DNA from: a virus
Lineage: Duplodnaviria > Caudoviricetes
Direction: 5' to 3' (one strand)
DNA length: 64,000 bases
Virus record (IMG/VR): IMGVR_UViG_3300032243_000867
Coordinates: 201,896 to 265,895 of that record
Shown here: positions 23,261-64,000 of the stretch, in pieces
Position numbering within the stretch: position 1 is the first letter of the stretch
How the letters are laid out: every line of letters begins with the position of its first letter
Program-made: the position numbers and the translations under genes
The notes under the pieces: model-generated
Told to the model about the DNA's origin: nothing
Database searches by the model: none
The model's input: only the letters and a program-made list of their open reading frames with translations

Positions 23261-23300
23261 CCCGTTAGAACGACGATATCCCCGCATTCTCGGAGCCCCC

Positions 23301-37157: not shown

Positions 37158-37387
37158 GCCCCGCCCCCGTTCTTCATTCTCTCCCTCTGCTCCAAGGCGG
37201 CTTCCAGCTTGGACCGGCTCTCCGCGAGTTCCGTCTGAAGTAGTTCTCGGAGCTTCATCAGAAGTTCTCGGTTCTTCTGAATCGTCGGAAGCTCGTTGAT
37301 GTCTACGGGTTGGGTCTCCACCCATCGGGCATCTTCGGGCTTCAGCCCAAGAGCCTCTAGCCTCTTGAGCATTTCGGGGTCGATCAC
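37154..37387 (-). CDS. Small coiled-coil protein
   Basis: 77-aa ORF with GTGA and ATGA overlaps on both sides. Confidence 0.65.
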   Translation of the reverse strand: MIDPEMLKRLEALGLKPEDARWVETQPVDINELPTIQKNRELLMKLRELLQTELAESRSKLEAALEQRERMKNGGGA

Positions 37388-40300
37388 GGCAGCTTCTCCA
37401 CGGACTGTACGGTAAGCAGGGCTCTCTCAGCTTCGGCTTCGCGCTTGGGGCGTTCGATGTCGAAGCGGCGGATGCTTTCTAGGCTACCCGTCACGCGGTT
37501 CACGCGCAGGTCCAGCCATGCGTACCGGGTCGCGCGGAGCTTGTCCCGCCCGTCGAGGGCTTCATTCACCCGGTCCACCAGCACGGGTCGCCCCACTCCG
37601 TTCGAGAGGTCGGCATACGGGGTCACGGGGAGTGCCGCGTAGCGCGGCCCCACGGTGTCCAGCCGGTAGTCAAGGCACCAGAAGCGGCGGTCGAGGATAG
37701 AGAGACAATCCCGCACGTTCGAGAACGGCGATACCGTCCAGTTGCCGATCAGCCCCAAGAGGTACGGGTTGGTGAGCAGCCCCAGACCGCTTTCGGGGTC
37801 GGTGGTCAACCCGAGGTCGGTGATGTGCTGGTCGCGTTGGAACAAGAAGTACGTCCCGTACTTGAACCGCACGGCGCGGATCTCTTCCATCCACGACAGC
37901 ATTCGTTCGCGCATGGAAAGGATGAGCTCGACCGTCTTCGAGGAGAGCAGGGAGGTCGGTCGGATCACCCGGTACGCGAAGGGCTCGACGGACTTGAACG
38001 TGGTCGTGTACGAGTTGCCCACGGGCGGGGCGGTCTCGCGCAGGTCCATCTGCCCTTCCGTACCGCCCGTGAGCCCGCTGGCGTGGACAGTGGGGTAGAC
38101 GGTGTAGGCGTTCGTGCCCGATCCGAAGGTCACGTCCCCGCCGTTGTTGCCCGCGAGTCCTCCGATGGCTTCGACGGTGAGCTGGGTAGCCGTGCGGGAG
38201 ACGACCCGGTAGTAGCCCCGGTTGTCGTCGGCGCGGGCGGGGCTTCCCGCTGCGTAGTTCGCCCTACCCGTCACGGCGTTGTCGCCGTAGGGGCGTCGCC
38301 CGTACTGCGGCGGGGTAGTAGAACCCGCGGGGGTGGTAAGGGTTCCCGCCGGGTCGATGACGACGATGTCGCCCTCAGCTACCCCTGCCGCCGTGTAGTT
38401 CACCGTGGTGTCGGTGTCCCCGATCTTGTTCGTAGCCGGGGCGCGTCCGCCCGTTTGTGCCACGAGGTTCGCGGGTCTGTTGATCAGCACCCGGTCGGTC
38501 GCGTAGCCGAGAAGTTCCTCGTTGGATTGCTCGTGCGGGACGGGCGGAACCTTCAGGTACACCTCGAAGCGCGCACCGGGGGCGACCGTCACCTTGCGGG
38601 ACAGAGTGAGGGTACGGGCTCCCGTGACCTTCACCACCTCTGCCCGTGCGGCGATCACCCCCGAAGCGTTGATGAAACGCACCTCGTCGCCGGGGTTCAC
38701 GTTCACGAGCTTGCTGGTGAAGTCGCCCAGTTGGGTAGCGGTTCCGCCCACGGTTGCCACGGGGGGCACCGCGCCGTCCACGGCGTCGGCGGTGAGAACC
38801 CCGTACCCGCCCGAAGCGGTGACGGTGGAGACGATGCCACGGCGGATCTCGTAGCTGTACCGCAGGGACAGCAGGGCTTCCGCGAACGAGTTGCCGAGGT
38901 CATGGAAGCGGCGCGGGCGGCGCACTTCGATCTGGCCCACCTCAAGGTACGAGTTTCCTGCTACCGGGACGCTGGTCATGTACGTGGTGAGGCGACGTAC
39001 GCCGACGCGGGACGTAGTGCTGGTGTTGCCCGCGTCCACGACGTTGCGATAGATGGGGTCCGCGAGGGTGTTGCCCGTGCGCGGGAACGAGGGCTCGACG
39101 TAGATGCCCGCCGCGCCCGAATAGTCCACCGTCCAAGCGTCACCGGGCAAGAAGCACCGCGCACCGTCGATGGCGAACGGCGGAGGGTACACGCCCGTAG
39201 GGGTGTGCAAGCGGTCCCAATCGGTGCCCGCAGTGTAGATACTGGTGATGTCCATCACGCCGGGGATCTCGTCGTACACGGGCGCGGACAGGGGTAGGAA
39301 CGTCTCCGAGGTGAGCTTGATCTTCTCGTACACGTCCACCTTCGAGGTGGCTGGCGGAACGTAGCTGAGAAACCCGAGCGTACTGGCCGTCCAATTGAGG
39401 GTGTTCGCGCCGCGCGTTGCTTGAAGGGTTCGCAGCCCGTAGGCTGAGTTCGGGCTCGCGCCGTCACCGCCGTTGCAATAGCCGGGGAGGTTCTCCGGGA
39501 TGCCGTCCCCGTGCGGGTTCAGCGGGATCATCGTGAAGCCCGACACCTTCAGGCCCGCCTGTGCGGCGGTTGCGAAGGCCGCTCCCGAGATGGCGAGCCC
39601 CTGCCCGTCTTGGTAGTTGTTCAGCCCCGTGAAATCCATGGTTACGGGGTTGAAGCCCGTGTAATCGGCGCTCACGATGCTGGAGGCGAACGTCGCGGGG
39701 ACAGGGCTATTCAACCCCGCCTCGTTGACGATCACGAACACCCGCCCAGCGGGTGGGAAGGTGTGCGTTTGTGCGGTGGCCGTTCCCGCCCAGTTCTTCG
39801 ACGGCGGGAGGGAAGGGATCTCCGACACGATCAGGTTCGTGGCGGTTGCCGTTACCACCGTGGGGAACGCCACCGGGAGCCAGCCCGAGGAATAGTCCCC
39901 CGCGCCATCGGGCACGGTGTACGTCACGTCGCGCCGTTCCAACCCGCCGCCGGAAGCGATCACTCCCCGTACGAGGTGCGTTCCCACCTTGCCGTTCTGC
40001 GCGGCCTTCGTGTACGCCGGGTCTTCGCTGTTCGACCGAAGGGTTACGATGTCGCCGGGGAGCACGCTGGCCGTCGCCCCCGTGAGCGTGGCCGAGGGAA
40101 TGAAGCGGTTGTCCCCCCATGAGAACGTGTGCGCCACGGGCGTGCCGTCGATACGGTCCGTGTACACGTCGGCGGTGAGGATCGCGTTCGTGGTGTTTTG
40201 CCGTGAGGACGGGGCGGCGCTGAACGTGATGTTCGTACCCGGGATAGCGATATTCCCGTGCCCCTCGAAGGGCATGGTCTTCAGGGCGAACACCCCGGTG

Positions 40301-43300
40301 CCCGTTTCGGCCCCCACACCGAAGGTGCCCGTGGTGAAGGGCGCATAGTTACGCTGGAGGAACGTGAAAGGGACGCCCCCGTTGACGTTCGCAGCGCGGT
40401 TGACCGTGTTGTAGATGTCGGCGGTGCCTACGGGGACGGTCGTTTCGTAGGTGGACAGGGCGCGCACCACTTCGAGGCGGCACTCGACGGACTCCGCCGC
40501 CGGGTTCACCGCCCCGCGCTCGCGGGCGCTGCGGGTGTCCACGGGGCCGGATACGGTCAGCCGGTCACCCTCGATAACGTAGGCGGCGGACTTCACCGCT
40601 ACGAGGTCGATGGTGAAGTCCAGCGGGTCAAGATCGGTCACGCCTCCGTAGGCGGCGAAGTCGAACACCGGGACGGCGGTTTCGACGGTGAGCTTCGTGG
40701 TGTTGAAGAAGCACGGGCCTACGCTTGGAACGAACGACCCGCCGTTGTCGCCCGATACGTCGAACACGCACGCCGTGATAACGGGGTTCGGGGCGTTCAA
40801 TCGCATGATGAACGTCGCGGCGGGAGCGAACGTGCCCGAAGCCTTCATCACGTTGATGCGAATTTCCGAAGGCTGGTCGGACGAGGTGAAGAAGGTGTTG
40901 AACCCGCCCGTGGGGGGGACGGCCCCGCCGCCGCCGTTGTTGTCGTCGAACACGAGGTTCGGCACGCCGATGAGCTCGAACGTCGTGCGGTAGTTCGGCC
41001 CGAAGGGGGCCTGCTTCACCCGGATGCCCGTGGTATGGGGAGCGGGAAAGGGCGGGTCGGCTTCGATGAACGTCTGGATCGCCGTGACGTTCAGGTCGAT
41101 CAGGCTGTTCTTGTCGGTGCGAGAGATGAACCGTGGGGGTTCGATGACCTTCGCCCCGTAGTCCACCGCCCCCACGGTGAGGATGCCCTGCGACCCGTTG
41201 GGGAGACCGCCCGTGCCTTGTTGGACGAACACGAGGTCGTAGGGGTTCACCGTGCCCACGCCCGAGTGCGCGGCGAACGGGGGGTCAAGGGTGACCGAAG
41301 CCCGAAGGGCGGCGGGTGCGGTAGGGAGGCTGTTGACCGCCCCGGCGTTGTCGAGGATCTCGTCCGGGTACGCGGCTTCCAGCGCGTACGGCGGGTACCC
41401 CGGGGCGGGCGGGTTCGCGGGCGGCGTCACCGTATCTACGGTGTAGAAGTCCACGCCCGCCGTGAAGGCGTCCCCAAGAACGGCGAGCTCCGTGGGGGCG
41501 ATCTGGTAGTAGGGCAGGGAGTAATCCCCCGAGTCGAGACGGGATGCACCCCGTAGGGCCGGGATGTTTGACGGGCTCACGTCTCCGTTCTGGAACGTCA
41601 CCCGAGCTTGAAGGTTGCGAAGCGGGGCGGGGGGCTTCTGGCCGAAGATTTCCTTCAGCCCGAAGAGGTTGGGGTCGCTGAACGACGGCAGGGTGATGTC
41701 TACTAGCTCGCCCGAGCGCCCGTCCAACCCCACGTCCGTTCCCGTGCGGTAGGCGGGAAGGGACTGCGAGAAGGCCGCGAGTTCGGCGTTCGTCGGCGGG
41801 TCGGACACGGCGGGGAGCACCGCGCCCGTGGTAGGAACCACGAACAGGGTGTCCCCCTTCTCGACCAGCGCAGCGGTGAGGGGCACGCCGTTCGCCGGGG
41901 CCGTGAGGCGCACGAGATTGCCCACGTTCGCCGCGGTGATCAGGACCGTTGCCCCCGCCGCGTCGTAGGTCTTCAGCGTGACGTAGCACCCTTGGAGGAC
42001 CGTATCGACGAACACCCCCGCATACACGGGTTGCCCGCCCACGGTGATTGTCGTGCCCGCGTAGCCCAGCCCGTAAACCGCCCCGTCGGGGGTTCCCAGT
42101 GATAGTTGGTCGCCGGGGGCGAAGGGCGGCGTGTGAAGGCTGGGGTCGCCCGTAGACAGGTCGTACAGGCCCGAGGTGCCCGTGCCGTTGGAGTACAGCA
42201 GGGCCGTGTCGGGCGTGCCGTTGGACTTCAGCGGGAACTGATCGAGGGGGAGCACCGTCGCCGCGAAGGCGGGTCGAATGACCGGGGGGACGGCGCTGAG
42301 GTAGCCCGAGGGCGAGAACGAGAAGATGCGGGCGCGGGCGAGACGATCTTGCACCGTGGCCCCGAGCACCGACGTGAGGTTGCCCCGCACGGGGTTGCTC
42401 AACCGCGCGATGGCTTTCCCGTTGGTGGACTGAAGGTCGATGACGGGCGGCGACGCGAACAGGTCTAGAAGCAGCTTCCCGTAGCTGTACACCCCGTTGT
42501 TGCCCGTGGTCGGGTCGTACCCGATGCCGGGGTCGGTGGTAGTAAACGCTTCCGTGCGTTCGGGGTACAGCCGCGAGAAGGCCGAAGGCTGGGACAGCCC
42601 CCGGTACACGCCGTAGGAGGACACCTTGAAGTGGATGAGCCCCGTGAGGGATACCGTGGTGCCGGTGAGGCCGTTGAGCACAACGTCGTCAACGTCGTTC
42701 TTGATGGCGCGGTATTGGGCGTTTTGAAGCGTTCCGAGGGCGTTCGCGGAGAGGGCCAGACCCTCGACCGCCCCGCCCGTGAGCGTCGCGCTGTACGGGT
42801 TGACGATGGGGTCGGTGGCGAGAAGCGCGACGGGCACCGTGCGGTAGCCGTTCCAGACTTCGTTCCACACGTTGCGGGCGTTGACCGCCCCAGTGATGCC
42901 GTCCTCGTATCCCGGCGGCGTCCACGGGTCGCCCACCCCCATCCACATACGGAGCTTGCCGTCGCGGTCACCCACGGGGTTGCCCGCGATGTTCTCCAAC
43001 ACCTGCTCGAACGAGGTGATCACCCCGTTGAAGTAGCGGAGGAACGTACGGGTCACCCGGTCACGGGACACGAGGTCTTGCCGCTCGGATGTCAGCCCCG
43101 CCGTGCCTTGCGTGGACGGGGAGTTCTTGGGGAATCCCCCCACCGAGGGGTTCGTGCCCGAGGCGTTGCGGGTGACCCCCTGCACGATGCTCCGCGCCGT
43201 CTCCGTGATGTACGCGGGGAGAGGTAGCGACCGTGCATAGAAGCTATCGGGCGAATCGAACGTGTAGGTGGCGGTGAGGGTCGCACCCAGCCTCCCGTTG

Positions 43301-46300
43301 CTATCGCTGGGCGGGTCGATGTAGCCCGCCGATGCGCTCACCCGTGGGTACTGCACTTTGCCCTGAAACACGAACGGGGCGAGAGTGCCTTGCACGGTGC
43401 GGTAGAACTGCAACGAGGACAGGGCCGGGAGGCCCCGCGTGCGCGGTTCCAGCAGGGTGAGCGTGCCCGCCGAAGGGTCCAGTTGGTAGTCTCGCCCTTC
43501 CGTAAGCGTCGCGCCGGGGACGGTGCCTTCGTACAGGACCACCTCGTAGGGCTCGGTGCCAACGAACGCGCCCGCGCCGATGAACACCGTTGCGCCTTCC
43601 GAGTACACCGGGCGCACGGAGATGCGGACGTAGTTCGGGCTCATTCCCGAGGTCCAGGTCATCTGGATGGGGGACGGCGACCCGAGGGTGATGTCGGTGA
43701 ACGCCCCGTCTACGAACTCTCCCTTGGCGATGAGGAAGGGCACCCCGAAGAGTTCGAGGACGTGACCCGTCACCGCGTACCGGGTGAGATCCCCCTCGAA
43801 GCGCACGACGTTCTGGCCCTTGGTGAGGGGCTGGAAGGCCGGGACGCTAGCCAACCCGTAGGCCGCGGTGAGCAGGGGCAGGAACCCCGCGTCGGCACCC
43901 GTCGCGACGGGCGACCCCACGGGGTCCACCGTGGGTGTGATGGCCCGGTCGGTGAGGAGGTTGATGGGCGGTTCGCTAGGGGAGAGCGTGCCCACGCTCT
44001 TCGTCGGCGTCGGGTACACCGTGACGGTGGTGATGTCCGCGGGAAGGCCGCTGTAGACGGACGCCTTGATGTAGGTGAGGTAGTTGCTGATACGAAGAAT
44101 GCGCCCCGGCACCATGTCCGCAGTGCGGTCGCCGTCGAGATTGAACGTCGAGACGTTGGCTTCAAGGCGGAACGGCGGACGCCACACGGGGCCTTGAGAC
44201 ACCGTGTAGGAGGTTTCGCCGCCCGAGGCTTCGTACACCCCGTAGGTGATCAGCACCTTCGTCGCGGGGTCGTTGACGGCTTTCACCAATGAGATGGTGT
44301 TGTTCGACGGGGTGACCGTGCAGCCCTTGGGGAACCCGTACGTCACCAACGTCGCCCCCACGTACACCGAGGGCTCTACGTCTGTGTCGATGGTGCGCCC
44401 CACCGCGTTGAACGAGTAAAGCTGCGAGCTGACGCGCGCCGCGGCTTCGCGACGGACGATCACGGGCAGGAACTCCGTCACCTGCACGGGTTTCCCGTCA
44501 CTGTCTAGGTACAGCGCGCCCGAGTCGGGCACGGCGCGGTAGTAGGTGACCTCGACCAGTTGCCCGGTCTGTACCGGGCGCTCGAAGGAGAACGCCCCGA
44601 GGATCGGGTTCAAGAACACCGTCTCGAAGGTCTGGAGGTCAACGAGGTAGATGCGGTCGGTTCTGAGGGACAGCCCCGCAACGCTCACCGCACCCGTAAA
44701 CGGGCTGATCTCAGCTTCACCCGCCGGGACGTTCGCAGACGGCAGTACCTCTTCGCGGTACGTCACCGTGGCCGATTGATAGTTGGCCTTCACCGTCGCG
44801 CCGAAGCGGAGCTCCCCGTCCGTCGTGCGGTACTGCACTACGTTCGCGGGGATGGGGGCGAGGAAGTTCGGCACGGGCAAGAGGTCCACGCCGTGGGCGA
44901 ACACCTTGGTGCCCACGACAACGCTGAACGACCCGGTGGTGAAACGATCCCCCGCCGCGGGAACGTTCAGCGCCCCGTCTGCGACGGACCCGAGAACGGA
45001 ACTGGTGAGAATGGTCGCCGGGAAGTTCGCGCCTGTGAGCCCGTACCGCACGGCGAGGGAGCGACCCGAGTTCGCCGTGGGGAGGTCAACGGGCGACGGG
45101 GCGGCGGGGGCCGTGCCCAGAAGGGTCAGCAACCGCACTTCGTACGGTTCGCTGGAGAGGTGGTTGAAGTCCCGGTAGACGGCATCGCCCAGCACGGCGG
45201 GGTTGATCGTTCCCGGCGCGACCCCGTCATAGAGCTCCCACGCGACGTTGCCCGTGCTGGCGGCGATGAAGTCCGGGGTGACGGTGATGGTGGGGGCGGT
45301 AGAAGCCGTGACCGTGTACGAGCCCGCGTTCGCGCCCGAGGTCACCTTCAAGCGGTCGCCCGCGCTGGCCGTGATGGTGAGGGACGTATCGGTGAGAGTG
45401 TTGGGAAGGGTGATCGCCCCACGGTAGCCCGATTGCTTCAGTTCACCGATGCGGGTGACCAGCACCGCCTCGCCCGAGCCCGAAGGCACCAAGAAGTCCG
45501 TCCCGAGGGTGAGCGTCTGCGCCGCCCCGCCCGTCGCGGACACCTTGAGGTATCCCCCCATCGCCGGGTAGAAAGTGGACGGAACCACCCCCGCGTTGCC
45601 GAGGTTGATGGATGAGACGGGCGATAGAACCTGCCCCGCGAACGAGAAGGTGGACAGCCATCCGAAGCGTGACTGGTCGAACTGGTAAACGGCGTCCTTC
45701 CAAGGTTTGACGGTGGTGCTGAGACGCAGCGTGTTCGGGGATGCAACGCCCGACAGGGAGAAGAACTCCCCCACGTCGTAGCCCGCGATGTCCTCGCGCG
45801 GCGGGTAGCTCAGGAGCTGGTACGGGATGGTTTGAAGGTCTTCCGATAGGGCCGCGTCCGTCACCCGATAGGTAGCCCGCACGTCGGGGGCGCTTTGCGA
45901 CCCGTCGAGATTGTTCGGGCTGCGGGACAGCCCGAAGGCGAGGCCCGTATCGGGGAGCCAGTTCGGGTCCGTGGCGGTGTGCGTTCCCGCGCTGGGGTTG
46001 GAGACGCGCCACCCGGGCGGGTACCCCATCGCGCGGCACCCGTCCTCGTTGAAGCCCACGGCCACGGTGCCCGTGGGGTTGTTCGATGCGATGTACAGGT
46101 AGCCCGAGAGAACGCCCGCCGTGCCCGCCCCAGCCATGATGGCATTGAGGGCGACGGCCACCGTCGCGGCGGGTACGTTCGTTCCCGCCGCGGGTGAGTA
46201 GTTGAAAGCGGTGCCGTCCACCGAGAAGGTGAACGTCTCGGTGCCCGCGAAGGTGAACGTGTCGCGGGTGCGCGAAAACACCCTTGCACCGTCGGGGTAC

Positions 46301-48066
46301 GAGGCCGGGGTGAGGAGGGCCTGGACGAAGTACAGGGTTTTGCCGCTGATGGCTTGAGCAAGGGCGTAGCCCACCCGTACGATCCCCGTGTTGAGGGCGA
46401 CGTAAGCCGTGTCGAGCGGGAGGGAGAAGATGTCCGTGGGAAGGTCGGCGTCGTAGTTGACTGTGACGATCTTGGCGATGCGCCCCGCACGGGTAAACAG
46501 GTAGGCGTCACCGAAGCCGGGGGAAAGCCTCTCCACCAGCCCCGACGACAAGGGTCGGGGTTGTACGGGCAACGTGGGGTTGGGGGCGTTGCCTGTACCG
46601 TCGGGCACCCGGACGATTCCCGAGATGCCCGTGCCGGGGAGCCCCGCGGCGGCGGGGATCACATAGTCCGATCCCCAAGAGGTGAGGGTGACGGGGGCCT
46701 GTACGGGCTGCGGGTAGAGGTTGAGGGCTACGCCGTCGTACCGAAGGCTCGCGTCGAGGTACAGCGGGTCGAAGGCGGGGGCGGCGGGGTTGGCCTTCGC
46801 CACGTCCGTTGGGTCCAGCTTCACCCGCCCCGTGGAAAGTGACACGCCCGCTTCGCCCGGATTGACGGCGAGGCCCGCGAGGGCGGTTTCGTTGGCGACG
46901 GTGATGACGGTGAGGGGTGCGCGATTGCCGATGCGAAGAATCGGTCGGTCCGTCGGGCCGGGGACGGGAGAGATGTAGTGCGGACCGCCCAGCAAGGGGC
47001 CGACCACGCCGTCGTTCATGGCCGCGAAGTCGCGGGGTGAGTACCAGAGGGCCTCGCCCTCGTGCGCGGCGATGAACGCCGGGTTCCACGCGATCTCTCC
47101 CGAGTCGCTACCGATCACGCCCGCGAGGGCCGGGGACACGGAGCCGAAGTCATAGCTGGCGTTCGCCACGTCGTCGGCTACCACCAGCACGCCGCTGTAC
47201 GAAACCCCCGTCACCACGGGGTAAGAAGCCTCGTCGGGCGAGTTTCCGAGGCGCAGCATCGCGTACTGCCCTGTGGTGGCCGTGCCCGGAAGGTAGCTGC
47301 CGAGGGGTGCGGTGGGGACGGGCGACAGGGTGTACCGGGAGCCTGCCGAGGACAGGAGCTTGCCGAGGTTCTTGGTTGCCCCGCCCTTGAAGGGCTCCCA
47401 TTTGCGGTGCGCGGCGTTCCAGCCGAAGCGGGCCGCACCGGGATCATTCCGCGTCCAGTTGAACGTCGCGGGGCCTACCGTGTAGGTGACTGAGGTGAAG
47501 GTGTCACCGCGCGAGGCGCTCACGGCGACGGGCGCAGAAGCCGGGACGTTTACCGCCGCGCGCACGGTGGCGGTGTCGTTCAGTTTGACCGTGCCCGACA
47601 CCGGGTCGAGGGTGAAGTCTGGAGACGTAAACGTGACCTTGGTGGAGGTCCCGCCCCGCACATAGACCATGCTGGCGACCGAGGCGACGTTCGCTCCACC
47701 GTCGTCGGTGACTACCACCCGCTGCGTGCCGTCCGTGAGAACGCCCGACGTGGGCACGGTCGGGTCGTTGACCGTGAGCGTGCCCGTGGGGATTGCCACC
47801 GTGCCGTCCGTGGACGTTGTGCCGGGGGCGACGGTCAGCGGTCCCGAGGTGTTCGCCCACAGCAGGTACTCAACGGTCTGCCCGCTTTCACTCAGCGTCG
47901 CGCGGTACCGCGCGCCGTTGATGTCCGTGACCGTGGCCGTGGGGTACGCAGGGGTGGGGGAGGTGAACACCGCACGGGACACGCCCGAGGAGACCTCGCC
48001 CGTCGTGTCCGCGTTGCTGGTCGAGGCCCGAGCGCCCGGAAGTACCTGACCGTCGAAGTTGCCCAT
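37384..48066 (-). CDS. Giant tail/baseplate structural protein (3560 aa)
   Basis: Uninterrupted 10.7-kb ORF rich in Gly/Thr/Ala/Val/Pro beta-type sequence; no enzyme motif recognised. Confidence 0.75.
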   Translation of the reverse strand: MGNFDGQVLPGARASTSNADTTGEVSSGVSRAVFTSPTPAYPTATVTDINGARYRATLSESGQTVEYLLWANTSGPLTVAPGTTSTDGTVAIPTGTLTVNDPTVPTSGVLTDGTQRVVVTDDGGANVASVASMVYVRGGTSTKVTFTSPDFTLDPVSGTVKLNDTATVRAAVNVPASAPVAVSASRGDTFTSVTYTVGPATFNWTRNDPGAARFGWNAAHRKWEPFKGGATKNLGKLLSSAGSRYTLSPVPTAPLGSYLPGTATTGQYAMLRLGNSPDEASYPVVTGVSYSGVLVVADDVANASYDFGSVSPALAGVIGSDSGEIAWNPAFIAAHEGEALWYSPRDFAAMNDGVVGPLLGGPHYISPVPGPTDRPILRIGNRAPLTVITVANETALAGLAVNPGEAGVSLSTGRVKLDPTDVAKANPAAPAFDPLYLDASLRYDGVALNLYPQPVQAPVTLTSWGSDYVIPAAAGLPGTGISGIVRVPDGTGNAPNPTLPVQPRPLSSGLVERLSPGFGDAYLFTRAGRIAKIVTVNYDADLPTDIFSLPLDTAYVALNTGIVRVGYALAQAISGKTLYFVQALLTPASYPDGARVFSRTRDTFTFAGTETFTFSVDGTAFNYSPAAGTNVPAATVAVALNAIMAGAGTAGVLSGYLYIASNNPTGTVAVGFNEDGCRAMGYPPGWRVSNPSAGTHTATDPNWLPDTGLAFGLSRSPNNLDGSQSAPDVRATYRVTDAALSEDLQTIPYQLLSYPPREDIAGYDVGEFFSLSGVASPNTLRLSTTVKPWKDAVYQFDQSRFGWLSTFSFAGQVLSPVSSINLGNAGVVPSTFYPAMGGYLKVSATGGAAQTLTLGTDFLVPSGSGEAVLVTRIGELKQSGYRGAITLPNTLTDTSLTITASAGDRLKVTSGANAGSYTVTASTAPTITVTPDFIAASTGNVAWELYDGVAPGTINPAVLGDAVYRDFNHLSSEPYEVRLLTLLGTAPAAPSPVDLPTANSGRSLAVRYGLTGANFPATILTSSVLGSVADGALNVPAAGDRFTTGSFSVVVGTKVFAHGVDLLPVPNFLAPIPANVVQYRTTDGELRFGATVKANYQSATVTYREEVLPSANVPAGEAEISPFTGAVSVAGLSLRTDRIYLVDLQTFETVFLNPILGAFSFERPVQTGQLVEVTYYRAVPDSGALYLDSDGKPVQVTEFLPVIVRREAAARVSSQLYSFNAVGRTIDTDVEPSVYVGATLVTYGFPKGCTVTPSNNTISLVKAVNDPATKVLITYGVYEASGGETSYTVSQGPVWRPPFRLEANVSTFNLDGDRTADMVPGRILRISNYLTYIKASVYSGLPADITTVTVYPTPTKSVGTLSPSEPPINLLTDRAITPTVDPVGSPVATGADAGFLPLLTAAYGLASVPAFQPLTKGQNVVRFEGDLTRYAVTGHVLELFGVPFLIAKGEFVDGAFTDITLGSPSPIQMTWTSGMSPNYVRISVRPVYSEGATVFIGAGAFVGTEPYEVVLYEGTVPGATLTEGRDYQLDPSAGTLTLLEPRTRGLPALSSLQFYRTVQGTLAPFVFQGKVQYPRVSASAGYIDPPSDSNGRLGATLTATYTFDSPDSFYARSLPLPAYITETARSIVQGVTRNASGTNPSVGGFPKNSPSTQGTAGLTSERQDLVSRDRVTRTFLRYFNGVITSFEQVLENIAGNPVGDRDGKLRMWMGVGDPWTPPGYEDGITGAVNARNVWNEVWNGYRTVPVALLATDPIVNPYSATLTGGAVEGLALSANALGTLQNAQYRAIKNDVDDVVLNGLTGTTVSLTGLIHFKVSSYGVYRGLSQPSAFSRLYPERTEAFTTTDPGIGYDPTTGNNGVYSYGKLLLDLFASPPVIDLQSTNGKAIARLSNPVRGNLTSVLGATVQDRLARARIFSFSPSGYLSAVPPVIRPAFAATVLPLDQFPLKSNGTPDTALLYSNGTGTSGLYDLSTGDPSLHTPPFAPGDQLSLGTPDGAVYGLGYAGTTITVGGQPVYAGVFVDTVLQGCYVTLKTYDAAGATVLITAANVGNLVRLTAPANGVPLTAALVEKGDTLFVVPTTGAVLPAVSDPPTNAELAAFSQSLPAYRTGTDVGLDGRSGELVDITLPSFSDPNLFGLKEIFGQKPPAPLRNLQARVTFQNGDVSPSNIPALRGASRLDSGDYSLPYYQIAPTELAVLGDAFTAGVDFYTVDTVTPPANPPAPGYPPYALEAAYPDEILDNAGAVNSLPTAPAALRASVTLDPPFAAHSGVGTVNPYDLVFVQQGTGGLPNGSQGILTVGAVDYGAKVIEPPRFISRTDKNSLIDLNVTAIQTFIEADPPFPAPHTTGIRVKQAPFGPNYRTTFELIGVPNLVFDDNNGGGGAVPPTGGFNTFFTSSDQPSEIRINVMKASGTFAPAATFIMRLNAPNPVITACVFDVSGDNGGSFVPSVGPCFFNTTKLTVETAVPVFDFAAYGGVTDLDPLDFTIDLVAVKSAAYVIEGDRLTVSGPVDTRSARERGAVNPAAESVECRLEVVRALSTYETTVPVGTADIYNTVNRAANVNGGVPFTFLQRNYAPFTTGTFGVGAETGTGVFALKTMPFEGHGNIAIPGTNITFSAAPSSRQNTTNAILTADVYTDRIDGTPVAHTFSWGDNRFIPSATLTGATASVLPGDIVTLRSNSEDPAYTKAAQNGKVGTHLVRGVIASGGGLERRDVTYTVPDGAGDYSSGWLPVAFPTVVTATATNLIVSEIPSLPPSKNWAGTATAQTHTFPPAGRVFVIVNEAGLNSPVPATFASSIVSADYTGFNPVTMDFTGLNNYQDGQGLAISGAAFATAAQAGLKVSGFTMIPLNPHGDGIPENLPGYCNGGDGASPNSAYGLRTLQATRGANTLNWTASTLGFLSYVPPATSKVDVYEKIKLTSETFLPLSAPVYDEIPGVMDITSIYTAGTDWDRLHTPTGVYPPPFAIDGARCFLPGDAWTVDYSGAAGIYVEPSFPRTGNTLADPIYRNVVDAGNTSTTSRVGVRRLTTYMTSVPVAGNSYLEVGQIEVRRPRRFHDLGNSFAEALLSLRYSYEIRRGIVSTVTASGGYGVLTADAVDGAVPPVATVGGTATQLGDFTSKLVNVNPGDEVRFINASGVIAARAEVVKVTGARTLTLSRKVTVAPGARFEVYLKVPPVPHEQSNEELLGYATDRVLINRPANLVAQTGGRAPATNKIGDTDTTVNYTAAGVAEGDIVVIDPAGTLTTPAGSTTPPQYGRRPYGDNAVTGRANYAAGSPARADDNRGYYRVVSRTATQLTVEAIGGLAGNNGGDVTFGSGTNAYTVYPTVHASGLTGGTEGQMDLRETAPPVGNSYTTTFKSVEPFAYRVIRPTSLLSSKTVELILSMRERMLSWMEEIRAVRFKYGTYFLFQRDQHITDLGLTTDPESGLGLLTNPYLLGLIGNWTVSPFSNVRDCLSILDRRFWCLDYRLDTVGPRYAALPVTPYADLSNGVGRPVLVDRVNEALDGRDKLRATRYAWLDLRVNRVTGSLESIRRFDIERPKREAEAERALLTVQSVEKLP

Positions 48067-56260: not shown

Positions 56261-56998
56261 ATGACACCCACCGCGTACATACAAGCGGGCACCGTGAAAG
56301 GCTACCTCTCAGAGTCGTGCGCCCTCGCGGCAGCAGACCTCACCCTCCGAGGCTACCGGGTGATCCCCTTCGCCCGTAACAAACTCCCCCCCACCGTCAC
56401 CCCCGACACCCCCGTGAAAGGAGACACGGGAGCCGTGAAGGCCATCTACGAATGGACCTTCAAGACCCCCTACCCCAACGTGGACATCCCCACGGCCCTC
56501 AAACCCCTCGCCCACCGTAGGGTGTGGAAAACCACGCTGGGCGTACTGCGGGCACGGGAACGAGCACACCCCCATAGCACAGAGAAAATCTTCGTGAAGC
56601 CCCTCAACGAAGCCAAGGCGTTCCACGCGAGGGGTTTCCGGTACGCCGCCAACGGCCTCTGCCTGTTCCCAGACGACTACCCGATCCTCGCCCAAGAGTA
56701 CCTGCACTTCAGCCGCGAGGAACGGTTCTTCATCGGACCCCGGGGCGTCCGTAAAGACCCCACCCAGCACCGAGAACTCCGTGCCTACGCCGAGAAAGCG
56801 TACCGGGCGTGGAAAGCCGAAGCCCCCGGAGCCTACGTCCTCGACGTGGGATGGTGCGGCAAAGGACACCCCGCCGTCGTCGAAGTCAACAGCGTGCTCA
56901 CCGCAGGACGCTTCGACATGGTCACCAACCCCGGTGCCCTGCTCATCGCAGCGTGGAAGAGCTACGCCCACTACGCAGAACACGGAACCTTCCGGTAA
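56261..56998 (+). CDS. ATP-grasp domain protein (R2K/DUF4343-like)
   Basis: IPTALKPLAHRRVWKTTL, IFVKP, AQEYLHFSREERFFI, AYVLDVG...VVEVN. Confidence 0.75.
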   Translation: MTPTAYIQAGTVKGYLSESCALAAADLTLRGYRVIPFARNKLPPTVTPDTPVKGDTGAVKAIYEWTFKTPYPNVDIPTALKPLAHRRVWKTTLGVLRARERAHPHSTEKIFVKPLNEAKAFHARGFRYAANGLCLFPDDYPILAQEYLHFSREERFFIGPRGVRKDPTQHRELRAYAEKAYRAWKAEAPGAYVLDVGWCGKGHPAVVEVNSVLTAGRFDMVTNPGALLIAAWKSYAHYAEHGTFR

Positions 56999-59183: not shown

Positions 59184-59447
59184 TTATAGCAGCGGCAGGT
59201 GAAGCCCTACCCACGACCCTAGGGACCCGCCCACCATCAGCCCGATCCATTGGGAGCGCCGCCCGTCTTCGACAAGGCGTTTGATGATTGAGACGTTCAG
59301 CGCCGTACTCAGTACGTCCGTGATCAGCGCGAAGCGGAAGTGTCCTACTGCGGTGGAGCGGACATTCAAGTACCACAGCAGGTGGTAGACGAATTGGGCG
59401 ACCGCGACCGCTAGCGGGGAGGACATAGCCTTGTCCGTGGGGTTCAC
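59184..59447 (-). CDS. Small membrane protein sharing its start with cassette C11
   Basis: VNPTDKAMSS... with hydrophobic helices; GTGA overlap with C11. Confidence 0.6.
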   Translation of the reverse strand: MNPTDKAMSSPLAVAVAQFVYHLLWYLNVRSTAVGHFRFALITDVLSTALNVSIIKRLVEDGRRSQWIGLMVGGSLGSWVGLHLPLL

Positions 59448-59617
59448 GTTCGGGGTTCCCTACCCCGAAGGACGCACCGAAACCCGAGGTTGTTGTCCTG
59501 GTACGCAGGCTCGTCCGCGTTGCGAATGGCCGCGCGCACCCTCGACGGTCCATAGTTGTGCCAACAGCCGCCGCCGCGGAAGACGCGGTCGGAGGTGGTG
59601 GTGTCCGTGGGGTTCAC
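59444..59617 (-). CDS. DGR-type VR mini-protein C11
   Basis: VNPTDTTTSDRVFRGGGCWHNYGPSRVRAAIRNADEPAYQDNNLGFRCVLRGREPRT. Confidence 0.82.
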   Translation of the reverse strand: MNPTDTTTSDRVFRGGGCWHNYGPSRVRAAIRNADEPAYQDNNLGFRCVLRGREPRT

Positions 59618-59784
59618 GTTCGGGGTTCCCTTCCCCGCAGCGCGCACCGAAACCCGATGTTGTTGATACGGTCCGCAGGCACGTACGTGAAGCGAGACGC
59701 GGCGCGCACCCACGACGGTACGTAGTTGCCCCAACTGCCGCCGCGGTAGACGCGGGTGTCGGAGGGCTTGGTAGGAGGGTTCAT
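59614..59784 (-). CDS. DGR-type VR mini-protein C10
   Basis: MNPPTKPSDTRVYRGGSWGNYVPSWVRAASRFTYVPADRINNIGFRCALRGREPRT. Confidence 0.85.
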   Translation of the reverse strand: MNPPTKPSDTRVYRGGSWGNYVPSWVRAASRFTYVPADRINNIGFRCALRGREPRT

Positions 59785-59933
59785 ACTCGGGGTTGCCTTA
59801 CTGACAGGTGGGTTCGGAACCCGACGTATTTGTCTCGGGTCTCGGAAGAAATATCCGAGACCTCGTCCGCCGCGCGCACGTAGAGGGGGCGCTCGATGAC
59901 CCAACTTCCTCCGCGTACCATGCGGCGTTTCAT
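59781..59933 (-). CDS. DGR-type VR mini-protein C9 (GFRTHL subfamily; not in the ORF track)
   Basis: Manual translation MKRRMVRGGSWVIERPLYVRAADEVSDISSETRDKYVGFRTHLSVRQPRV. Confidence 0.78.
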   Translation of the reverse strand: MKRRMVRGGSWVIERPLYVRAADEVSDISSETRDKYVGFRTHLSVRQPRV

Positions 59934-60076
59934 CGCGGGCACCGGCACCGGGCTCGGAGGCGGAAGCCCACGGTGGTGTTGCGGTAGACAGGTTCCTTTC
60001 GCACGCGCGCGGGGACGGCGCGGGGGTCGTTGCCGAAGCTGTAGCTCCGCAGGGTGAGAGTCCCCGGTGGGTTCAT
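59930..60076 (-). CDS. Diverged VR mini-protein C8
   Basis: MNPPGTLTLRSYSFGNDPRAVPARVRKEPVYRNTTVGFRLRARCRCPR. Confidence 0.65.
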   Translation of the reverse strand: MNPPGTLTLRSYSFGNDPRAVPARVRKEPVYRNTTVGFRLRARCRCPR

Positions 60077-60225
60077 CGCGGTGCCCTCATCGTCAGGTGC
60101 GTACGGAATCCCAGTAGGCGTCCATATCGCTCCGGTCCGTAGATGTGGGCCACGGTGCTGGTCCCCAGCCATTTCGGGTCATCGCTACGAAGGCATCCCC
60201 CACGGGTGACGTTCTGGTTGTTCAC
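60073..60225 (-). CDS. VR mini-protein C7 (GFRTHL subfamily)
   Basis: VNNQNVTRGGCLRSDDPKWLGTSTVAHIYGPERYGRLLGFRTHLTMRAPR. Confidence 0.72.
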   Translation of the reverse strand: MNNQNVTRGGCLRSDDPKWLGTSTVAHIYGPERYGRLLGFRTHLTMRAPR

Positions 60226-60455
60226 GGGTCGCTCCGATTGGTGTCGGTCCAGTGTTCGAGGTCGGTGGTGTCGAGGATGTCCGTGCAAACGTCAGCGGGC
60301 GGGGTCACCTCTCGGTGTTCCCCGCCCGCCGTGATCGTGTCCGCCCACGCGAAGGACGCTCCCGCGTCCGGGTCGTAGCCGTGCCCTACCCGGACGGTGA
60401 CCACTTCGGGGTTCGCCCGGAGGTAGTCCCGTGCCCAGTCACTCGCCCGCGTCAT
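60222..60455 (-). CDS. Hypothetical protein (77 aa)
   Basis: MTRASDWARDYLRANPEVV...; coupled to C7 by GTGA. Confidence 0.6.
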   Translation of the reverse strand: MTRASDWARDYLRANPEVVTVRVGHGYDPDAGASFAWADTITAGGEHREVTPPADVCTDILDTTDLEHWTDTNRSDP

Positions 60456-60723
60456 GGGAAGGGTTACGCTGCTTGAGGTAGGCGCGGAGGATGTTCGCGG
60501 CGCTATTCGCCGCGTCATCGCAGTAGCCCACGAACTCCTGCGCGTCTTCGCCGTTCTCCACCACGCCGTCGAGGGCGGCGAGGGCCTGACCCGCAATTTT
60601 GCGGGCGGCGAGGGCGTGGAACCCCGTGCTCGCCGGGTCACTTCGGTGAAGCGAATCGAGGAGGACCGAGCACTGGAGGCTGAAGCTGACGGTGTTGACC
60701 GCGTACTGGATCTCGTTGTTCAT
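60439..60723 (-). CDS. Hypothetical helical protein
   Basis: 94-aa ORF with GAAGGG RBS. Confidence 0.65.
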   Translation of the reverse strand: MNNEIQYAVNTVSFSLQCSVLLDSLHRSDPASTGFHALAARKIAGQALAALDGVVENGEDAQEFVGYCDDAANSAANILRAYLKQRNPSHDAGE

Positions 60724-60753
60724 GGTGTGTCCCTTCGTGTGTGTGCGTTGCGT

Positions 60754-60972
60754 TCAGACGGTGCGGGTGTACCAGTTGCCGCCCTTGAGGACGACGCGGC
60801 GCGGTTGCCAGCCTTTGCTGGTCTGCACTTCGAGGCGCGAACCCGTGGGGGCGAACTGCACGGTGCGGGCGAAGCGGGCGGGCACCCGCCGCGCCCCCTT
60901 GTGGGAGCCCGTGTGGATTTCGCACTGGGCGAGGTGGGTGCCATCGGGGGAGATGAGCTTCAACGTGTTCAT
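60754..60972 (-). CDS. Hypothetical basic protein
   Basis: 72-aa ORF with AGGA RBS. Confidence 0.6.
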   Translation of the reverse strand: MNTLKLISPDGTHLAQCEIHTGSHKGARRVPARFARTVQFAPTGSRLEVQTSKGWQPRRVVLKGGNWYTRTV

Positions 60973-60984
60973 GGTGTGTGTTTC

Positions 60985-61167
60985 CTAGTGTGTGCGGGGT
61001 TGCCTCGCCCGAAGGGCGCACCGAAACCCCAGGTTGTCGTCACGGCACGCAGGCACGTCCGCGCCGCGAGACGCGGCGCGCACCCTCGACGGTACGTTGC
61101 TGTACCAACAGCCTTCGCGTTGGACGCGAAGGCGGGTGTCGGAGGTGGGTTTGGTGGTGGGCTTCAC
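60985..61167 (-). CDS. DGR-type VR mini-protein C6
   Basis: VKPTTKPTSDTRLRVQREGCWYSNVPSRVRAASRGADVPACRDDNLGFRCALRARQPRTH. Confidence 0.85.
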   Translation of the reverse strand: MKPTTKPTSDTRLRVQREGCWYSNVPSRVRAASRGADVPACRDDNLGFRCALRARQPRTH

Positions 61168-61343
61168 GTTCGGGGTTCCCTTCCCCGCAGCGCGCACCGA
61201 AACCCGATGTTGTTGCACCGGTTCGCAGGCACGTACGTGAAGCGAGACGCGGCGCGCACCCACGACGGTCCGTTGAAGTACCCACCGCCGCCGCGGTAGA
61301 CGCGGGGGCGGGTGTCGGAGGTGGGTTTGGTGGTGGGCTTCAC
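61164..61343 (-). CDS. DGR-type VR mini-protein C5
   Basis: VKPTTKPTSDTRPRVYRGGGGYFNGPSWVRAASRFTYVPANRCNNIGFRCALRGREPRT. Confidence 0.85.
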   Translation of the reverse strand: MKPTTKPTSDTRPRVYRGGGGYFNGPSWVRAASRFTYVPANRCNNIGFRCALRGREPRT

Positions 61344-61516
61344 GTTCGGGGTTCCCTTCCCCGCAGCGCGCACCGAAACCCCAGGTCGCCGTACCGGTTC
61401 GCAGGCCCGTTCGTGTTGCGAGACGCCGCGCGCACCCACGACGGAGCATTGTTGTGCCAACTGCCGCCGCGGTCGACGCGGAGGCGGGTGTCGGAGGGCT
61501 TGGTAGGGGGCTTCAC
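61340..61516 (-). CDS. DGR-type VR mini-protein C4
   Basis: VKPPTKPSDTRLRVDRGGSWHNNAPSWVRAASRNTNGPANRYGDLGFRCALRGREPRT. Confidence 0.85.
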   Translation of the reverse strand: MKPPTKPSDTRLRVDRGGSWHNNAPSWVRAASRNTNGPANRYGDLGFRCALRGREPRT

Positions 61517-61686
61517 GTTCGGGGTTCCCTTCCCCGCAGCGCGCACCGAAACCCCAGGTCGCCGTACCGGTTCGCAGGCCCGTTCGTGTTGCGAGACGCC
61601 GCGCGCACCCACGACGGTGCATAGTTCCAACAGCCGCCGCGGCCGACGCGGAGACGGGTGTCGGAGGGCTTGGTAGGGGGGTTCAT
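61513..61686 (-). CDS. DGR-type VR mini-protein C3
   Basis: MNPPTKPSDTRLRVGRGGCWNYAPSWVRAASRNTNGPANRYGDLGFRCALRGREPRT. Confidence 0.85.
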   Translation of the reverse strand: MNPPTKPSDTRLRVGRGGCWNYAPSWVRAASRNTNGPANRYGDLGFRCALRGREPRT

Positions 61687-61865
61687 ACTCGGGGTTCCCT
61701 TCCCCGCAGCGCGCACCGAAACCCCAGGTGGAGGAGCCGGAGCGCAGGCACGCCCGAGTTGCGAGACGCCGCGCGCACCCACGACGGTGCATAGTTCCAA
61801 CAGCCGCCGCGGACGACGCGGAGACGGGTGTCGGTCTTGGGTTGCTTGGTGGTGGGGGGGTTCAT
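61683..61865 (-). CDS. DGR-type VR mini-protein C2
   Basis: MNPPTTKQPKTDTRLRVVRGGCWNYAPSWVRAASRNSGVPALRLLHLGFRCALRGREPRV. Confidence 0.85.
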   Translation of the reverse strand: MNPPTTKQPKTDTRLRVVRGGCWNYAPSWVRAASRNSGVPALRLLHLGFRCALRGREPRV

Positions 61866-62038
61866 ACTCGGGGTTCCCTTACTGACAGGTGGGTGCGAAA
61901 ACTCATGTCGGTTTCGCGCCACTCGGGCTCGTACGAGCCCCGGTCGGCGGGCCGCATGAACGGGGCGTAGGAGAGTCCCCAACCTCCTCCCACCAGTACG
62001 CGGGGGAGGTTGGGGTCCGGGGGCTGTGCCCGTCTCAT
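61862..62038 (-). CDS. VR mini-protein C1 (FRTHL subfamily), coupled to the FGE scaffold
   Basis: MRRAQPPDPNLPRVLVGGGWGLSYAPFMRPADRGSYEPEWRETDMSFRTHLSVREPRV; its ATG overlaps the scaffold TGA. Confidence 0.78.
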   Translation of the reverse strand: MRRAQPPDPNLPRVLVGGGWGLSYAPFMRPADRGSYEPEWRETDMSFRTHLSVREPRV

Positions 62039-62868
62039 TTGTGGACGGTGCTGGTCCACTCCCAGACGTTGCCGCTCATGTCGAGCAGCCCGTAGGGGGA
62101 GGCACCCTTCGGGCGGGCGGGGGTGCCGTCCGGGTTGACGCACGGGGCCGTGCGTTCCTTCTGGGTGCGGATGGACGACCAGCACAGGTCGTCCGTCGGG
62201 GCCTCGTTGCCCCACGGAAACTTCCGACCGTCCCAACCGCGTGCGGCGTGCTCCCATTCCTCCTCGGTGGGGAGGCCGACACCGGCCCACTTCGCGAACT
62301 CACAGGCGTCCCAGTAGGAGACTTCCACCACCGGGTGGTCGATGAGGTCCACCGTCGCGCCCGACTGGTCCGTGGCGGTCGTGGGCTTCAGGTCTTTCCC
62401 GCACGCCGTGGCGTACCAGTTCCACTGGCGCACGGTGGTGGGGGTCTGCGCCATGAACCCACCGGGGACTCTCACCTTCCGGCGCGTTTGAGACTCGTCG
62501 TCCCCCATCTCGAACGCCGTGGCCGGGGGGACGTAGCACATGGGCAGGGTGTTGCCGTCGGGGAGGACGTGATGCACCACCCACGGGGTTCCGCCCAGCT
62601 CCGCGAGCGTGGGCCAGATCTCGCGGACCTCGCCGTCGTCGTCCTCCAGGCGGGGGACGCACCCGTAGGTGCGGTGGACGCGAAACGTCCAGACCTCCTT
62701 GGAGGTGAGCACCCGCACGCCCGTGATTCCCGCCGGGAGGTTCCCGGCGATTTGGCGGATCACCGACATCACCTCGTCGAGGTGATCGCCGGAGGGCAAT
62801 CGGAAGTCGGGCTCGATGTCGAGCCATTGGCCGAGACATGATTCGATGAAGCACCCTTGGATTTCCAT
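62035..62868 (-). CDS. FGE-sulfatase/C-type-lectin-fold protein lacking its C-terminal variable region
   Basis: FEMG, QTPTTVRQW, HPVVEVSYWDACEFAKWAG, LPTEEEWEHAARG, FPWGN, SPYGLLDMSGNVWEW, then a stop after TSTVHK; GGAGA RBS before ATG 62868. Confidence 0.9.
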   Translation of the reverse strand: MEIQGCFIESCLGQWLDIEPDFRLPSGDHLDEVMSVIRQIAGNLPAGITGVRVLTSKEVWTFRVHRTYGCVPRLEDDDGEVREIWPTLAELGGTPWVVHHVLPDGNTLPMCYVPPATAFEMGDDESQTRRKVRVPGGFMAQTPTTVRQWNWYATACGKDLKPTTATDQSGATVDLIDHPVVEVSYWDACEFAKWAGVGLPTEEEWEHAARGWDGRKFPWGNEAPTDDLCWSSIRTQKERTAPCVNPDGTPARPKGASPYGLLDMSGNVWEWTSTVHK

Positions 62869-63469: not shown

Positions 63470-63618
63470 CGGTCCTCCTTACGTTTGCGGTTGGTGGGCG
63501 GCGGGGCGGCGGGCTGGCGGCGACGTTCGAGCCAGCCGTCCACCAGCCCCATGAGGGCTAGTGCCGCCGCGCAGTAGGCGGAGATGCCCGCCAACTCGGT
63601 GTCGGTGATCACGGTCAT
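63466..63618 (-). CDS. Small single-TM protein
   Basis: MTVITDTELAGISAYCAAALALMGLVDGW...; GGGAGG RBS. Confidence 0.55.
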   Translation of the reverse strand: MTVITDTELAGISAYCAAALALMGLVDGWLERRRQPAAPPPTNRKRKEDR

Positions 63619-63671
63619 CCTCCCCTTCGCCCCCCTAACCGGACGGGAGGGGGGTCTATTAGTGGGAATCG

Positions 63672-63750
63672 TTAGCGCCCCGACGCGGAATCGAACCGCG
63701 CACACCCGCCCCCGGTTCAGCCGGGGGCGCGCGCCTCCTCGACCGTCGCC
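63672..63750 (-). ncRNA. tRNA-like element (degenerate)
   Basis: Perfect T-arm CGCGG-TTCGATT-CCGCG (63684-63700) preceded by an 8-bp hairpin GCCCCCGG-CTGAA-CCGGGGGC; no canonical D-arm or acceptor stem found. Confidence 0.25.
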
Positions 63751-63817
63751 TCGCCTCGCGCCCAACTGCGCGCCGGGATTGGAGGGGATGCCCGCCAAGT
63801 TGCTTGGCGGGACGCTG

Positions 63818-64000
63818 TCACTCGACGAGCGCAGCCTCGACTACCTCCCACGGCACCGCGCAACGCACGGCGGCGGCGTCGGCGGCGGAGTCGTCGGCGT
63901 AGTAGGCGGCGCGGGCGGCGGCGCGGGCGTAGACGGCGGCGGCGTCGGCGGCGTCGGCGGCGTCGTAGTAGGCGGCGCGGGCGGCGGCGTGGGAGGCGGC
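63818..64000 (-). CDS. Ala-rich low-complexity protein, 5'-partial
   Basis: Manual translation ...AASHAAARAAYYDAADAADAAAVYARAAARAAYYADDSAADAAAVRCAVPWEVVEAALVE-stop. Confidence 0.65.
   Translation of the reverse strand, partial: AASHAAARAAYYDAADAADAAAVYARAAARAAYYADDSAADAAAVRCAVPWEVVEAALVE

Follow-up and report, generated by a model that had tools for sequence, protein, structure and literature searches.

Described systems and the split locus

The variable proteins of diversity-generating retroelements (DGRs) constitute the main known form of targeted protein hypervariation outside vertebrate immunity, and in every described case the variable region (VR) lies within the protein that it diversifies, with one region per domain. 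The locus described here has another layout. It lies in a 64,000-nucleotide stretch (hereafter the window) of the virus record IMGVR_UViG_3300032243_000867 (Duplodnaviria; Caudoviricetes), and consists of a truncated gene for a domain with the fold of formylglycine-generating enzymes (FGE) and C-type lectins (CLec), termed the scaffold gene, and of many small genes, termed mini-genes, which encode the VR-like segment that the scaffold lacks. The window is the final 64 kb of the 265,895-bp record (positions 201,896 to 265,895).

The closest described relatives are the FGE-type DGR variable proteins, such as TvpA of Treponema denticola (PDB 2Y3C; Kaur et al. 2020, PMC7159879), with which the locus shares the PF03781 fold, the alignment of the VR segment, the variable positions and the NNC/adenine footprint. 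The known targets of this type are single polypeptides with their own C-terminal VR and with a cassette of reverse transcriptase (RT) and template repeat (TR) nearby, whereas in this locus 26 separate genes encode the VR segment, the body is cut short, and neither RT nor TR nor Avd is found. DGRs with multiple VRs have many VRs per genome, duplication of the VR-bearing unit and, in some cases, VRs adjacent to each other within one gene (Yan et al. 2019, PMC6642488; Thiohalocapsa PB-PSB1, Dore et al. 2024, PMC10907252). As described, these VRs are parts of intact CLec domains or of whole target genes, among them a 'short CLec-only target'; stand-alone VR-only open reading frames (ORFs) or a truncated partner gene are mentioned in neither PMC6642488 nor PMC10907252. 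We found no account of genes that encode a VR alone and stand next to a truncated body.

In silent-cassette systems (Neisseria pilE/pilS, Borrelia vlsE) and shufflons, untranslated cassettes are copied into a complete expression gene. The locus is like these systems in that tandem partial copies with conserved flanks, variable centres and mosaics stand beside a gene that lacks them, and unlike these systems in that each copy carries its own start and stop and is translationally coupled, and in that a complete expression gene is lacking. Among phage protein families, only that of the FGE-like 'kinase' of Microcystis phage Ma-LMM01 (phrog_18508) is matched, with an identity of ~32%. The phrog_18508 profile is a single model of 266 positions, which is matched here by two separate proteins, the scaffold on 38-198 and the mini-protein on 216-264. 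Among 224 jumbo phages surveyed in 2021, no FGS domains were reported (PMC7824862), and a clade of huge phages with the FGE fold fills the gap left by this survey. Compared in these ways, the locus appears unlike an intact FGE domain, a complete DGR or a silent-cassette system, and resembles a DGR target in fold, variable positions and footprint.

The truncated scaffold gene and the mini-genes

The scaffold gene is located as follows.

62035..62868, minus strand: truncated FGE/CLec-fold scaffold gene, ATG at 62868 to TGA at 62035, 277 residues

An alternative GTG start at 62904 gives a protein of 289 residues. The protein begins with a domain of ~110 residues without a family match, which is followed by the FGE core, and ends with GNVWEWTSTVHK, such that the TGA stands six residues past GNVWEW. 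It matches the Pfam family FGE-sulfatase (PF03781) at profile positions 12-193 of 255 (E 9e-32, 111 bits, cut-off 23.3), and this coverage, together with the sequence, confirms the claim of the sequence-only reading that the gene ends at this point. The fold model of the scaffold is closest to solved FGE structures and also resembles TvpA. The RVxRGGSW...GFR segment is absent from the scaffold polypeptide and is encoded by separate ORFs. When the entire record is scanned with Pfam, only one FGE N-terminal part is detected, and no complete FGE gene. True formylglycine-generating enzymes have a catalytic cysteine pair (C336/C341 in human FGE). The solved FGE of S. coelicolor has LCHDSYC at the aligned place where the mini-proteins are without a cysteine pair, and a CxxxxC pair after GGSW is present in none of the 15 mini-proteins of the window. 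An enzymatic role is unlikely for the split FGE module, because the mini-proteins are without the catalytic cysteine pair.

The mini-genes of the window are listed below. They fall into a stable class (T-class) and a hypervariable class (C-class).

61862..62038, minus strand: m1, stable T-class, 58 residues, ATG on the scaffold stop (AAATGA)
61865-61683, minus strand: m2, hypervariable C-class
61686-61513, minus strand: m3, hypervariable C-class
61516-61340, minus strand: m4, hypervariable C-class
61343-61164, minus strand: m5, hypervariable C-class
61167-60985, minus strand: m6, hypervariable C-class
60225-60073, minus strand: m7, T-class, 50 residues
60076-59930, minus strand: m8, T-class, 48 residues
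59933-59781, minus strand: m9, T-class, 50 residues
59784-59614, minus strand: m10, hypervariable C-class, 56 residues
59617-59444, minus strand: m11, hypervariable C-class, 57 residues
53119-52958, minus strand: m12, T-class, 53 residues, GTG on the stop of an unrelated 169-residue gene
52505-52335, minus strand: m13, C-class, 56 residues, follows an unrelated 143-residue gene
52326-52135, minus strand: m14, C-class, 63 residues, after m13
50562-50344, minus strand: m15, C-class, 72 residues from the ATG at 50562, with an upstream GTG at 50625

These 15 mini-ORFs encode 48-72 residues; 11 of them (48-60 residues) are located in the 59444-62038 interval and four elsewhere in the window. Those that score in Pfam match FGE-sulfatase at positions ~200-254 of 255 (E ~1e-6). 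The ORF positions and these matches bear out the earlier count of 11 mini-ORFs downstream of the scaffold and 15 in the window that encode the missing segment, and the reported overlap of the first of them with the scaffold stop is likewise present at m1. The 11 mini-ORFs form arrays, as had been proposed, but not a single uninterrupted run: three unrelated genes (60972-60222) part m1-m6 from m7-m11. The members m2-m6 (60985..61865, minus strand), which are 57-60 residues long and match FGE-sulfatase at positions ~204-254 of 255, are linked by ATGA or GTGA stop-start overlaps. The tails of m2-m5 are GFRCALRGREPR(T/V), that of m6 is GFRCALRARQPRTH, and those of m7-m9 (59781..60225) are GFRTHL or GFRLRA. 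The leader of m15, MARSRKTPAPYETNPTD, recurs in a fusion protein, P0103.

In thirteen of the 15 mini-ORFs, the start codon overlaps the stop of the preceding gene as ATGA or GTGA, and the conserved mini-gene tail (...CGG GGA AGG GAA CCC CGA) places a purine-rich stretch 13-18 nucleotides upstream of the next start. A profile built from the 15 mini-ORFs detects 26 copies in the record with E-values of 1e-7 to 1e-28, the rest being noise. The 11 copies outside the 15 of the window form four clusters behind unrelated genes, and all 26 copies have intact frames. The mini-ORFs look like translated genes, because the start/stop overlaps and the upstream purine-rich stretch are conserved and all copies are intact.

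Conservation of the split, variation of the mini-genes and the adenine footprint

When the scaffold is used as a query, 45 full-length homologous clusters with 43-94% identity are detected, all of which end 5-13 residues after GNVWEW; the closest complete FGE proteins match only the FGE part of the scaffold. The same gene order is present in the syntenic loci L001, L004, L005, L006, L084 and L297, which are independent assemblies; the layout is found in assemblies from ENA, JGI, NCBI and Logan. Orthologues of m1 are located at the same junction in L001, L004, L005, L006 and L084, with DNA 95-97% identical in four of these loci and diverged in L004. The scaffold/m1 junction is AAATGA here, AAGTGA in L001, L004, L005 and L297, and TAGTGA in L006. 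A stop with an overlapping ATG or GTG is kept in these five relatives, the A-to-G change being silent in the scaffold frame and preserving the start codon. In L007, the next mini-gene begins a few nucleotides past the scaffold stop without overlap. No close relative with a fusion of scaffold and mini-protein in the normal order is found in the search among longer proteins. A search with m3 gives 61 stand-alone homologues of 53-80 residues, often several per contig, and its only longer close relative is an over-extended call of 124 residues. In IMG/VR, the C-class mini-genes are confined to three contigs, each of which also has the scaffold gene.

An error of assembly or sequencing, or a degenerating pseudogene accompanied by ORFs that arose by chance, might be considered for a region of high GC content, in which many long chance ORFs arise around the mini-genes. 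However, the same layout is present in the independent assemblies, profile E-values reach down to 1e-28, and homologues with as little as 43% identity are likewise truncated. The conserved layout in the relatives refutes this explanation, to which we give practically no weight. Neither a sequencing error at the junction nor close relatives fused in the normal order, of which the sequence-only reading had warned, are seen, the split being conserved in the 45 clusters and across assemblies. Judged from these comparisons, the split layout is conserved and is not an artefact.

The last ~130 nucleotides of the scaffold gene together with m1 (61870-62160 of the window) are 92-100% identical in DNA to L005 and L006, as compared with ~60% for the 5' part. 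This conservation, like that of m7, m8 and m12, could reflect a constraint on synonymous sites or a recent exchange. It could also be a recoding signal, and m1, which overlaps the scaffold stop, is in the -1 frame, as expected if programmed -1 frameshifting joined the scaffold and m1 into a normal FGE protein, with the other mini-ORFs remaining separate. However, the junction contains no slippery heptamer and is CACAAATGA, CACAAGTGA or CACTAGTGA in relatives, in which the start codon is always kept; moreover, the L007 mini-gene starts after the short gap mentioned above, and the junction of another locus, L301, is a plain GTGA overlap. Frameshifting is therefore considered very improbable. Reading through the scaffold TGA in frame to m3, which would give a pseudo-fusion, is impossible, since a second TGA and a further stop interrupt the frame.

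The T-class consists of m1, m7-m9 and m12 (tails GFRTHL or GFRLRA), the orthologues of which are 84-99% identical in DNA. The identities are 95-99% for m1, m7, m8 and m12 in relatives; in L001 and L084, m7 and m8 are 97-99% and m9 is 84-92% identical, and m12 is 97.5% identical in L007. For dN/dS, these stable mini-genes offer too few differences between orthologues. The C-class has the framework RVxRGGxW....PSWVRAASR....PAxR....GFRCALRGREPR, and its members vary in number and sequence between genomes, the flanks of which are 90-95% identical. Five C-class copies follow m1 here, three in L001 and two in L084, and two follow m9 here, three in L001 and eight in L084. Some copies are mosaics: the 3' halves of m3 and m4 are identical, and m5 and m10 have long stretches of the 3' half in common.

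These mosaics, the quick change in copy number, and the tandem, co-oriented arrangement of copies with conserved flanks and variable centres are also expected of a bank of silent cassettes, from which sequence would be passed by recombination or retrohoming to a single expressed site, for example the position of m1, in the manner of pilE/pilS or vlsE. However, each cassette has its own start on the preceding stop, an upstream purine-rich stretch and an intact frame, none of which a silent cassette would require, and the record is without a full-length expression gene. The copy adjacent to the scaffold, m1, is the most conserved one and not the most variable, and the dispersed copies are coupled to unrelated genes. 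A cassette bank is therefore regarded as improbable, although less so than frameshifting.

The adenine footprint was analyzed for 34 C-class mini-genes from six genomes, which were aligned by codon. It is read from the mini-genes alone, with no template for comparison. In the VR-like stretch, A occupies none of 59 conserved nucleotide columns, as compared with 85 of 499 (17%) in the scaffold gene (Fisher P 6e-5). The hypervariable codons are of the type NNC, and 298 of the 303 residues at these columns can be encoded by NNC. Among the four-fold codons in the hypervariable columns, 50 of 61 end with C, as compared with 42% genome-wide. Other variable codons vary at one position (nCG, GnG and nGG), and NNT is also found. 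The hypervariable positions are those of the AAC codons of bona fide template repeats, of which at least 120 were obtained from JGI metagenomes and the translation of which is RGGSWNNN..N.R.ANRNRN.P.NRNNN[IL]GFRC. The synonymous sites of the C-class framework are ~0.8 identical to those of L005/L006, as compared with 0.6 in the scaffold gene; this high identity fits either a common template from which the framework was copied, or constraint on the DNA itself. The footprint suggests that DGR-type mutagenesis is the likely origin of the C-class diversity.

Proposed completion of the fold in trans and possible independent action of the mini-proteins

We propose, with moderate confidence, that the locus encodes a split binding module of the CLec/FGE fold, which is conserved among a clade of huge phages and would be completed in trans by many alternative tips. 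The scaffold gene would make the body of the domain, halting just before the last ~55 residues, which hold core strands (RVxRGGxW ... GFR) along with the loops that, in DGR variable proteins, make up the variable binding surface. These residues would be delivered by separately translated mini-proteins, 26 in the record, each of which would insert into a scaffold molecule and finish the fold. An infected cell would thereby hold mixed complexes with one body and differing binding surfaces. The T-class members (m1, m7-m9 and m12) would represent fixed specificities, m1 being the likely cognate C-terminal piece, whereas the C-class would be diversified by DGR-type adenine mutagenesis and by fast gain and loss of copies. 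The anatomy, its conservation, the co-occurrence of both parts and the footprint are observed; that each mini-gene is translated, that its product binds in trans, that the mini-proteins are interchangeable and where the mutagenesis comes from are what we infer.

The scaffold and the mini-protein together form one contiguous FGE profile (Pfam positions 12-193 plus ~200-254 of 255), and in solved FGE structures, as in TvpA (2Y3C), the mini-protein profile aligns to the final ~45 residues. The sequence-only reading had suggested a complex prediction with each peptide; it was done for m1, with scaffold residues 100-289, and the missing part of the fold is filled with a score of 0.92, as compared with 0.46 for the best of three controls. 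The contacts (~212) agree by at least 97% between runs, the pLDDT of the partner is at least 80, and the tightest contacts are those of the m1 SFR motif to scaffold residues 151-156, 191-204 and 280-283. The mark of the 0.92 model is reached by 58 of 80 solved complexes and by 2 of 110 mismatched pairs; these counts are approximate, since the alignments were our own. The model shows m1 docked as the missing part of the fold. It indicates that the pieces are compatible with a complete fold, which is short of binding, because the FGE fold has been solved as a single chain and the pass may be a memory of this fold.

Fusions of the two parts exist in other orders. In P0103 and P0104 (L007:5629-6717; two clusters, 85% identical), a mini-gene that lacks a stop codon continues in frame into a downstream scaffold paralogue, in the order tip-linker-body. 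The AlphaFold2 model of P0103, made with the alignments A4 and A5, both of which are poor in the mini part, has a core with pLDDT 80-95 and an N-terminal mini part with pLDDT 24-48, which is not docked. In A5, scaffold N-terminal domains are misplaced on the mini columns; the alignments A3 and A6 are misaligned and were not used. A search with the mini-protein profile gives 781 representatives at E-values up to 1e-10. Among them, P0183 and P0230 combine an FGE core with 8-9 tandem tip modules, and P0188, P0198 and P0220 consist only of 3-4 tandem tip modules. P0183, P0230, P0193, P0215 and P0220 contain 4-9 tandem VR-like modules per chain, some with an FGE core on one or both sides. We know of no description of a protein architecture with tandem VR modules. 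In L301 (6174-7225), which is a phage-like ENA contig of 12 kb, a truncated FGE gene of 162 residues is joined by a GTGA overlap to the gene of P0188, a four-module tip protein of 188 residues. The DNA of modules 1 and 2 of P0188 is identical except at positions 1-2 of NNC-type codons, one of which is NNT. By its gene arrangement, L301 is a second, independent lineage with the split layout.

As the chief alternative, the mini-proteins might work alone or with other partners, such as host proteins with FGS or CLec domains, next to a self-sufficient scaffold, in which case the common descent of both parts would be a matter of history only. The existence of proteins composed of tip modules only (P0188, P0198 and P0220) agrees with this explanation, as does the mini part of P0103 that AlphaFold2 left unplaced, although the alignments are poor in this part. 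However, a piece of 45-55 residues from an FGE core is unlikely to fold alone, and a scaffold without these strands is incomplete. Independent action is also difficult to reconcile with the strict co-occurrence of both parts in IMG/VR, with the conserved stop/start overlap with the scaffold, with the tandem-module protein directly after the truncated scaffold in L301, and with the pass of the complex model, with its possible memory of the solved fold. Independent action is considered unlikely, but remains the explanation to which we give the most weight after completion in trans.

Several results weigh against completion in trans by DGR-diversified tips. The earlier placement of the mini-genes downstream of the scaffold holds near the scaffold, but mini-genes are also dispersed over the record, following unrelated genes at seven or more places, and are not a dedicated scaffold operon. 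This dispersal favors independent action, and so does the ratio of 26 mini-genes to one scaffold gene, at which most mini-proteins might remain unpaired. The copies are distinguished by insertions and deletions, a kind of change that is not generated by DGR homing. One exact mini-protein is present on seven contigs from several samples, and two such loci are identical over 5.6 kb; therefore, no ongoing change is visible at the consensus level. RVT_1 of Pfam has no match in the record, which is 59% complete according to CheckV, or in three related IMG/VR fragments (G001-G003). A profile built from 62 DGR reverse transcriptases gives a best E-value of 0.83 in the record and no hit among the related loci that were fetched, and Avd (PF05635) has no match in G000-G003. 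No template repeat is found in the record, where none of the 26 copies is Asn-rich. A template-repeat pattern scan of IMG/VR gives one unrelated DGR only, and in that of the JGI metagenomes the framework of this lineage is present in none of at least 120 canonical repeats among the matches listed.

The search for a recognition element points in the same direction. DGR targets have a GC-rich IMH (initiation of mutagenic homing) sequence and a hairpin 3' of the VR, with a stem of 7-10 bp and a GRNA loop of 4 nucleotides (PMC3240598). An inverted repeat (CGGGG-AAGGGAA-CCCCG) is located 3' of the C-class mini-genes, with a 5-bp stem and a loop of 7 nucleotides; that of m11 has an 8-bp stem and a loop of 5 nucleotides. 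The C-class repeat does not fold better than shuffled sequences (Z -0.9 to +0.65). This hairpin was rejected as a DGR recognition element, because its stem and loop do not match those described and its folding is no better than that of shuffles. Hence, the earlier designation of the locus as a DGR target stands as far as the canonical VR positions and the adenine footprint are concerned, but it is limited to this footprint, since no RT, Avd or TR is found. All the records are fragments, and therefore the machinery may lie elsewhere in the genome; the RT and the template may be encoded in the missing ~41%, or may have been lost.

If the module is completed in trans as proposed, detached and multiplied VR mini-proteins would represent a new repertoire design, in which diversity is kept as many co-expressed genes per genome and not across the population. 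It would be a natural split-protein complementation with interchangeable parts, of interest for the engineering of binders. We tentatively suggest, as a possibility that goes further and is less probable than the split module itself, that phages carry out combinatorial recognition in this way, with a constant CLec/FGE body and dozens of co-expressed, retroelement-diversified tips that complete it non-covalently, variants being archived by gain and loss of copies. The FGE cores with 8-9 covalently attached tips and the L301 lineage would then be other forms of the same principle.

Neighboring genes and the record

The genes next to the mini-gene arrays are listed below.

60222..60972, minus strand: three small genes unrelated to FGE (72, 94 and 77 residues), between both mini-gene arrays, syntenic in relatives, no PHROG match
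59184..59447, minus strand: hydrophobic, possibly membrane protein of 87 residues, GTG on the m11 stop, closes the array

The 87-residue hydrophobic protein, which has no family match in Pfam or PHROG, opens with the mini-gene leader NPTD, and its place is kept in L001 and L084. The mini-gene arrays are located in a block of small genes, away from the structural genes. Other features of the window are as follows.

2897-6265: baseplate J
15066-16451, plus strand: PIN-PhoH fusion
23241-24818, plus strand: weak, sub-threshold RelA/SpoT-like match
31588-32520, minus strand: dCTP-deaminase-like protein
37384-48066, minus strand: ORF of 3560 residues, no Pfam match
56261-56998, plus strand: R2K ATP-grasp protein

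A megablast search of the locus against 50,697 phage records gives no match. The closest named record is that of an uncultured huge phage of 485 kb, the PhoH-PIN protein of which is 69% identical; a scaffold search of this 485-kb phage gives no match. In GTDB genomes, only ordinary cellular FGE proteins are found, and therefore these genomes give no clue to the host. The GC content of the sequence is ~64%, and the record ends with a G-rich stretch of low complexity (63584-64000 of the window), which encodes Gly/Val or Pro/Thr runs depending on the frame. This stretch may be the reason why the assembly halts ~1 kb past the scaffold gene.

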